IMG/VR virus record: IMGVR_UViG_2718217863_000003
Direction: 5' to 3' (one strand)
DNA length: 42,690 bases
Source of the DNA: a virus
Lineage: Duplodnaviria; Heunggongvirae; Uroviricota; Caudoviricetes
Numbering within the stretch: the stretch's first letter is position 1; every line of letters starts with the position of its first letter. Positions 25,234 through 25,584 of the stretch are shown here, one piece after another. The position numbers and the translations under genes are program-made. The notes beneath the pieces were generated by a model, which worked only from the letters and a program-made list of their open reading frames with translations, was not told the DNA's origin and made no database searches.

Positions 25234-25584
25234 TTAAGGTTGTGATTCCGGAGGAGTCTTCAGAGAACCAGTAATTCTTCCCGGTAGCTTTCCTTTGTAG
25301 GTTATCCATACATTCTGCGCCTCTAAAATTACGGGGCGCTTTTCCGGCGACTGCTCATCCCCTTCACATAACCCGGCAGCAACATCCAGGAAGACCTGTC
25401 TGATACTCATTCTGGCTGCTGCCTCATAAAACTCCGGCGCGGCACCTTCAACACGGTCCAGCGAGATGTCCAGGTCAAAAATTTCACCGTCAAAGCGTTT
25501 TTTGTCCCGTAACGCTAAAGTTACCGTAACTTTATTCTCAAAATTGCGGATCCCTTTCACAATCAGTTCATAGTTTTGAGTCAT
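25234..25584 (-). CDS. hypothetical protein (116 aa) embedded between holin and endolysin
   Basis: ATG 4 nt after holin stop with GGGGAGAG RBS; no TM segment; family not recognised. Confidence 0.6.
   Translation of the reverse strand: MTQNYELIVKGIRNFENKVTVTLALRDKKRFDGEIFDLDISLDRVEGAAPEFYEAAARMSIRQVFLDVAAGLCEGDEQSPEKRPVILEAQNVWITYKGKLPGRITGSLKTPPESQP

Follow-up and report, generated by a model that had tools for sequence, protein, structure and literature searches.

A small gene lying between the holin and endolysin genes of a lambdoid prophage is almost certainly a member of the ydfR family (Pfam DUF1327), an optional accessory of Escherichia lambdoid prophages. The window, by which we mean the whole 42,690-nucleotide stretch of viral DNA under analysis, carries it on the minus strand at 25584..25234, as an ATG start, 116 codons in all, and a stop. 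A first-pass annotation had placed a 116-aa reading frame at 25234-25584, and it is indeed present there, on a strand that the annotation left unstated. Its description of the family as unrecognised is wrong: the profile is Pfam DUF1327, RefSeq uses the name 'YdfR family protein', and ydfR occupies the same slot in the K-12 Qin prophage. The gene is an ordinary member of a known, widespread family and the window copy is already catalogued; with K-12 and some four fifths of the complete E. coli genomes carrying ydfR, it has little weight as a discovery. What is new here is its architecture: an N-terminal domain that forms a unit, a 5' junction with the holin gene that is fixed where the 3' side is variable, and an intragenic mosaic. 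This anatomy (a 74-aa N-domain, a fixed junction, and exchangeable tails), combined with a published lead to RNase E, makes the function of ydfR directly testable.

Three marks of family membership coincide in the window gene: a Pfam score above threshold, similarity to K-12 YdfR, and a position between holin and endolysin. The protein matches the DUF1327 profile (PF07041) at 138.1 bits against a cut-off of 25 (E 1.2e-40), and the match spans residues 1-112 of the reading frame and positions 1-92 of the 93 in the profile. BLASTP aligns it with K-12 YdfR over residues 1-74 at 78% identity (E 2e-44); the tails of the two proteins are unalignable. At the DNA level, the 351-nt gene shows 100% identity with RefSeq 'YdfR family protein' genes of several clinical E. 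coli genomes, for example that encoding WP_071940739.1 in strain MRSN346595. In PHROGs, the protein hits families 2091 and 406 at E ~1e-67, neither with an assigned function. Sequence-profile searches of NCBIfam, PADLOC, and PDB with the window protein gave zero matches; in PADLOC, neither this protein nor four longer relatives hit any defence profile at E <= 1, and no family in the PHROGs 'lysis' category matched the window protein at E <= 0.01. Homology to a well-characterised lysis accessory protein, the finding that the first-pass annotation had named as contrary to its view, was not encountered in PHROGs, NCBIfam, PADLOC, or PDB sequences. The profile searches and structure prediction that it recommended succeeded in recognising the family (DUF1327) and failed to supply a functional homologue; no solved or annotated homologue of the window protein was found. 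Literature searches returned irrelevant genomics only for 'DUF1327' and unrelated acronyms only for 'essQ'.

The family is common and narrowly distributed. Megablast detects similar DNA in 4270 of 5426 complete E. coli genomes, a figure not directly comparable with the megablast count for the holin, since diverged alleles fall below the word-size sensitivity of the search. A phmmer search of 1.84 billion cluster representatives (50% identity clusters) recovered 61 clusters only, all of them close variants or fragments, so that no link to a remote family can be built. Among 185,579 species, each represented by one genome, ydfR occurs in E. coli, E. ruysiae, E. albertii, and Shigella flexneri only, besides two MAGs. 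These GTDB entries, labelled Veillonella parvula (L096) and Bacillota bacterium (L098), carry Qin-type ydfR cassettes: L096 agrees in spacing and in its 78% identity with a Qin-type locus of E. coli (L095), and L098 comes near, at 73%. Because they match at the level of E. coli Qin-type loci, both are probably E. coli contigs mis-binned into Firmicutes MAGs. The YdfR family thus appears to be confined to Escherichia and Shigella.

The genes around ydfR make up a complete lysis cassette on the minus strand. Upstream lies an S21-type class II holin, or pinholin (25589..25804; 71 aa; PF04971, E 3.7e-32), with a Met1/Met4 dual start (MDQMEK...); it is 79% identical to K-12 EssQ and carries the RefSeq name 'class II holin family protein'. 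Downstream follow the endolysin, a phage lysozyme (24637..25170; 177 aa; PF00959, E 1.5e-23), the i-spanin Rz (24179..24640; PF03245, E 9.7e-50; RefSeq homologue 462 nt), and, embedded in Rz, the o-spanin lipoprotein Rz1 (24238..24420; PF06085, E 2.8e-20). The program-made reading frame for Rz reaches further, to a TTG at 24655. A convergent Bor/Iss lipoprotein gene on the plus strand (23854..24147; PF06291, E 5.7e-30; 'iss' in RefSeq) marks the end of the cassette. The endolysin N-terminus is hydrophobic and rich in Ala, Gly, and Leu, which is consistent with a signal-anchor-release (SAR) domain, and the protein is ~90-98% identical across all ydfR-carrying loci that have a lysozyme. The neighbours are therefore those that the first-pass annotation described, a pinholin and an endolysin by Pfam, with the SAR nature of the latter read from sequence. 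Just 5' of the holin start codon, at 25843-25871 on the minus strand, there is a 12-bp terminator-like hairpin followed by a T-run; it falls inside an artificially extended, GTG-start reading frame of the program-made list.

The junction between holin and ydfR is tight. On the minus strand it reads GCG GCA CGG GGA GAG TAA TTCA ATG ACT, in which 4 nt separate the holin stop TAA (25591-25589) from the ydfR ATG (25584-25582). A Shine-Dalgarno-like element, GGGGAGAG (25592..25599, minus), lies inside the last holin codons, 7 nt 5' of the ydfR ATG; we defined it by comparing the junctions of the window, K-12 Qin, Stx2 phage 86, and 933W. Both the 4-nt distance and the ribosome-binding element thus stand as first annotated. 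On the other side, the distance to the endolysin needs a small correction: the gap between the ydfR stop and the endolysin ATG (25170) measures 63 nt (25171..25233, minus) and had been given as 60 nt. This spacer has no recognisable Shine-Dalgarno; the ~30 nt immediately 5' of the endolysin ATG (AACCGATAAATCCTGATAAATATCC) are common to the window and Stx2 phage 86. In cassettes that lack ydfR, GGGGAGAG serves the endolysin instead, and insertion of ydfR may have retuned endolysin translation.

A consensus-based scan of the minus strand from 24000 to 30500 found no sigma-70-like promoter, and no terminator-like hairpin was found between ydfR and R. With no promoter of its own, ydfR depends for its expression on the late transcript. 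From this layout, the gene almost certainly shares the transcript of the Q-dependent late operon and has its translation coupled to that of the holin, in agreement with the coupling to the pinholin gene proposed at first pass. A classical moron, one of the possibilities raised there, is disfavoured by the absence of an own promoter and terminator (consensus-based scan) and by an ATG 4 nt after the holin stop. The product is, as had been stated, a soluble protein devoid of a TM segment: its maximum Kyte-Doolittle mean over 19 residues is 1.03, its pI is 5.2, and its net charge is about -2.5.

Comparison with other S21-type cassettes defines the slot that ydfR fills. The cryptic K-12 prophage Qin, with the order essQ-ydfR-rrrQ-rzpQ/rzoQ, resembles the window most directly: K-12 YdfR (b1555, P76160) likewise sits in a run of class II holin, ydfR, lysozyme, and Rz/Rz1, and the junction of S stop, 4 nt, and ATG is identical. 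The two differ in that the K-12 tail is EKVESYLQHQYSFKIENPANKHERPHHKYL, unrelated to the EKRPVILEAQNVWITYKGKLPGRITGSLKTPP module of the window; in that K-12 ydfR overlaps rrrQ (ATGA), whereas the window has its 63-nt gap; and in that the window allele has Pro50. The cassettes of phage 21, 933W, and DLP12 (S21-R-Rz/Rz1) share the holin, endolysin, and spanin families of the window. In 933W the S-end junction is as in the window, but it is the endolysin ATG that lies 4 nt past the S stop and uses GGGGAGAG; in DLP12, essD and rrrD overlap, with R directly behind S. Since 933W and DLP12 hold R immediately behind S, ydfR fills exactly the slot of R in the window.

Cassettes with and without ydfR are both frequent. 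By tblastn, the YdfR protein is found in 101 phage records, all of Escherichia phages, including mEp460, 2H10, Evi, YYZ-2008, and many Stx1a and Stx2c phages; an S21-type holin is found in 427, so that about a quarter of S21-type cassettes carry ydfR. The statement that such cassettes are normally S-R-Rz/Rz1 is accordingly right in part: about three quarters of S21-holin records lack ydfR, but this is not the sole layout, as the 101 of 427 attest. The presence/absence comparison of related cassettes that had been suggested as a check thus identifies ydfR as optional.

Where ydfR is present, its 5' side hardly varies and its 3' side varies widely. Among 97 loci with a YdfR N-domain, the holin stop precedes the ydfR ATG by 4 nt in 94 and by 3 nt in two; the distance from ydfR to the endolysin ranges from 307 to 1303 nt, and several phages have reverse-strand reading frames in between. 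This constancy of position is not accompanied by constancy of allele pairing. Co-variation of holin and YdfR alleles was sought across loci and is absent: one locus (L084) combines 98.6% holin identity with 54% identity in the YdfR N-domain, and another (L090) combines 80% with 96%. Phage phiSTEC1575-Stx2k (L086, locus 2281-4299) has an S21-type holin and ydfR, then two reverse-strand reading frames, and further on an unrelated lysis module with two holin-family genes and an M15 metallopeptidase. With this second module, a single phage has two holin systems, and its S21-ydfR pair is left without a cognate lysozyme.

The protein itself consists of two parts with separate histories. The conserved N-terminal domain (codons 1-74; 25363..25584, minus) is the stretch with 78% identity to K-12 YdfR and the counterpart of K-12 residues 1-72. 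The variable C-terminal tail, here the EKRPVILEAQNVWITYKGKLPGRITGSLKTPP module (25237..25362, minus), was delimited by alignments and by the low confidence of its structure prediction. The tails are interchangeable within the family and comprise the EKRPVILEAQNVWITYKGKLPGRITGSLKTPP module, a further coiled-coil-like extension of ~60 aa, the K-12 tail, and extensions with which the total length reaches 263-287 aa. When the long C-terminal extensions of relatives of 176-287 aa were scanned against Pfam for fused domains, the result was noise only. In phage Evi, a 72-aa protein consists of the N-domain alone.

Selection has acted on the N-domain. The reading frame is intact in nine diverged homologues, and pairwise Nei-Gojobori estimates among diverged alleles give N-domain dN/dS of 0.2-0.5 with dS up to about 2. 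N-domain dS runs from 0.04 to about 2, and dS in the tail module is only 0.12-0.29 regardless; because tail dS stays flat against N-domain divergence, ydfR is an intragenic recombination mosaic. As the alignments place it, the breakpoint is near the conserved EGAxLEFYEA motif, and the tail is exchanged independently of the N-domain. The phiSTEC1575-Stx2k copy changes allele type within the N-domain, near EGAxLEFYEA (mosaicism was seen among L084, L086, and L091-L093). The N-domain of ~74 aa is, on these comparisons, the conserved functional unit, to which exchangeable tails are joined.

Structure prediction divides the protein in the same place. The full-length AF2 model is poor (pLDDT 59.8, with the tail below 50), and the N-domain alone is predicted with a pLDDT of 85.4 and a pTM of 0.71. 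In this model, antiparallel strands at residues 5-14, 18-27, and 34-43 pack on one long helix at 50-74 (beta-beta-beta-alpha). Foldseek against BFVD gave nothing below E 0.03, and the resemblances of the modelled N-domain to a dsRBD and to phiKZ Dip are to be read as leads only. At codon 50 (25435-25437, minus) the window has Pro (EGAAPEFYE) in place of the Leu found in at least 90% of aligned relatives; the position is the N-terminal end of the domain's single helix. The N-domain also has an invariant patch, R44/E46-G47-A48/E51/E54/A57.

Göpel et al. (RNA Biology 2026; PMC13232886) provide the sole experimental functional data that we found for the YdfR family. In bacterial two-hybrid experiments, a fragment of K-12 YdfR comprising residues 1-72 was recovered three times with RNase G as bait and interacted more strongly with RNase E constructs having the catalytic N-terminal half; full-length K-12 YdfR interacts with Rne 1-597 (PMC13232886). 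Strep-YdfR co-purifies Rne 1-598-FLAG together with much DNase-resistant nucleic acid, and the authors concede that a contaminant could account for the RNA (PMC13232886). On expression, K-12 YdfR builds up and is stable; its overproduction changed few transcripts and left growth unaffected, and under standard conditions ydfR is near-silent, with almost no RNA-seq reads (PMC13232886).

The fragment that interacts with RNase E corresponds to the window domain with 78% identity, and for this reason we favour, tentatively and with somewhat less than even confidence, a reading in which YdfR, made late and located in the cytoplasm, would dock on RNase E/G, perhaps along with RNA, and modulate the decay of RNA while the late operon is active. 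Its N-domain would bind RNase G and the catalytic N-terminal half of RNase E, perhaps with RNA as well. Late in the lytic cycle, and in the cytoplasm rather than at the membrane or cell wall, YdfR would modulate host RNA decay, for example by protecting the long late transcript or by re-targeting its turnover. We infer that the window allele acts like its K-12 orthologue and that it does so in the lysis phase. A more elaborate form of the model, in which the N-domain is a holin-coupled late factor on the RNase E/G core, perhaps an RNA-loaded dsRBD-like adaptor that would reprogram or blunt host RNA decay in the last minutes before lysis, is doubtful.

Phages offer precedents for such an activity. 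T4 Srd is cited as one for binding of the N-terminal half of RNase E (PMC13232886), and RapZ, Srd, and K-12 YdfR form a functional class of proteins that bind there. As Göpel et al. relay it, Srd is a small cytoplasmic phage protein reported on the RNase E catalytic half, as proposed for YdfR, and it stimulates host mRNA decay (Qi et al. 2015, cited in PMC13232886). The two differ in context, Srd being an early gene product of a virulent phage and ydfR a late gene of temperate lambdoids; no sequence relationship between them was detected, the PHROG scan having returned unknown-function families only. Another phage protein, phiKZ gp37/Dip, is an inhibitor of the RNA degradosome (PMC4980113).

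Several points count against the RNase E reading. Its support comes from one study of an orthologue, by overexpression, two-hybrid assay, and co-purification from lysate, and the binding of YdfR to RNase E could be bridged by RNA. Overproduction of K-12 YdfR had the slight effects noted above. The N-domain is acidic (pI 4.9), which is unusual in an RNA binder, and the window allele has Pro50 in place of the prevalent Leu. Finally, the model leaves unexplained why the invariant linkage is to a holin gene rather than to an RNA-related gene.

That linkage would be put to direct use if YdfR controlled the pinholin from the cytoplasm, in the way of an antiholin or as a timing factor, through the conserved C-terminal tail that S21-type holins have on that side of the membrane. 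Coupling would supply YdfR in a fixed ratio to the holin, and it would delay or sharpen triggering in the manner of T4 RIII or P1 LydB. Both of these are small soluble proteins co-expressed with or acting on a holin; PHROGs revealed no sequence similarity of YdfR to either. The position of ydfR 3-4 nt behind the holin in 96 of 97 loci, set against the variable distance to the endolysin, speaks for this role, as does the holin-ydfR pair kept by phiSTEC1575-Stx2k despite foreign downstream lysis genes. Further support could be drawn from the Keio collection, where the ydfR mutant is among the CPRG-positive (leaky envelope) orphan genes (Paradis-Bleau 2014), but the gene appears in supplementary hit tables only, without follow-up, and the phenotype is unvalidated and may reflect polarity on rrrQ. 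T4 RIII, the subject of an article on RIII and ribosomal protein S1 (PMC9409239), illustrates that a small cytoplasmic lysis regulator can act on RNA metabolism too. We nonetheless regard regulation of the pinholin as rather improbable. About three quarters of the phage records with an S21-type holin, including 933W, have no ydfR, so that the gene is dispensable for S21-type lysis, and the free shuffling of holin and YdfR alleles argues against co-evolving partners. S21 carries its own antiholin, encoded by its dual start, and no PHROG 'lysis' family matches the window protein. An unlikely alternative, to which we give slightly more credence, is that ydfR is passenger cargo, serving for example anti-defence, exclusion, or host fitness, unrelated to lysis and to RNase E, and exploiting the highly expressed, recombination-prone S/R junction. 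This would suit a tiny, genus-restricted family (61 clusters; Escherichia and Shigella), optional among otherwise similar cassettes and itself a recombination mosaic, in an S-R interval that is a hot spot also for reverse-strand reading frames and long C-terminal extensions. Against it, ydfR has no promoter or terminator of its own and would stay silent in a lysogen until the late operon is switched on; the near-absence of K-12 ydfR reads in RNA-seq (PMC13232886) agrees, and such behaviour is atypical of lysogenic-conversion morons. PADLOC is blank, and strict holin coupling together with a conserved N-domain suggests a role late in infection.

The remaining explanations assign little to the protein. 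If ydfR acted mainly in cis, it would uncouple endolysin translation from the holin and lower or retune the S:R ratio, and its product would be of little importance. The contrast between 933W, where the endolysin ATG follows the S stop by 4 nt and uses GGGGAGAG, and the window, where a 63-nt spacer without a recognisable Shine-Dalgarno precedes R, is what such an effect would look like; but purifying selection on the protein (dN/dS 0.2-0.5) and the confident AF2 prediction for the N-domain point elsewhere, and in Qin the ATGA overlap of ydfR and rrrQ means that coupling is passed on and not broken, all of which makes a predominantly cis effect improbable. A chance or decaying reading frame that is not translated, to which the unusual Pro50 and the many frameshifted or truncated database relatives might point, is scarcely credible: the Pfam match has an E of 1e-40, the frame is kept across alleles with dS up to about 2, the Shine-Dalgarno element and coupling are conserved, viable phages that have been isolated, among them mEp460, Evi, 2H10, and Stx phages, carry the gene, and K-12 YdfR is stable when expressed (PMC13232886).

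The gene matters chiefly for its frequency and its setting. YdfR is among the commonest unexplained genes of E. coli prophage late operons, including those of many Stx1a and Stx2c phages; it is co-expressed with the lysis genes, and the Shiga toxin genes belong to the same late operon. Should the tentatively favoured RNase E link prove true during induction, it would extend post-transcriptional host takeover, until now described in virulent phages (T4 Srd, T7 gp0.7, and phiKZ Dip), to temperate lambdoid phages. Among temperate lambdoid and Stx phages, YdfR would then be the first described effector directed at RNase E, and the presence of a non-lysis gene welded to the pinholin gene would be accounted for.

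The remainder of the window places the cassette in its prophage. DicF, hok/sok, the Q antiterminator, and the layout of the late region together suggest an intact Qin-like lambdoid. DicF sRNA lies at 38135-38186 (plus), sok antitoxin RNA (hok/sok) at 32076-32251 (minus), and a tRNA with a CAT anticodon, named tRNA-Ile in RefSeq, at 29002-29077 (minus). Between the Q antiterminator (29221-30042, minus) and the lysis cassette, and so inside the late transcription unit, an IS30-family ISApl1 transposase gene (26844-27845, plus; flanks to about 26560-28000) sits within an iraM-like anti-adapter gene. Strain MRSN346595 has this insertion too. Mobilisation of mcr-1 is associated with ISApl1. The stretch that follows Q and the tRNA and precedes the lysis genes contains sRNA STnc100 (Rfam RF02076) as a tandem duplicate at 27994-28182 and 28458-28651 (both minus; 132 and 138 bits), each copy ending in a strong terminator-like hairpin (AGCCCCTCTCCGGAGGGGCT). 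At the start of the window, an ALIL frameshift pseudoknot of an IS3-type element lies at 282-398 (plus).
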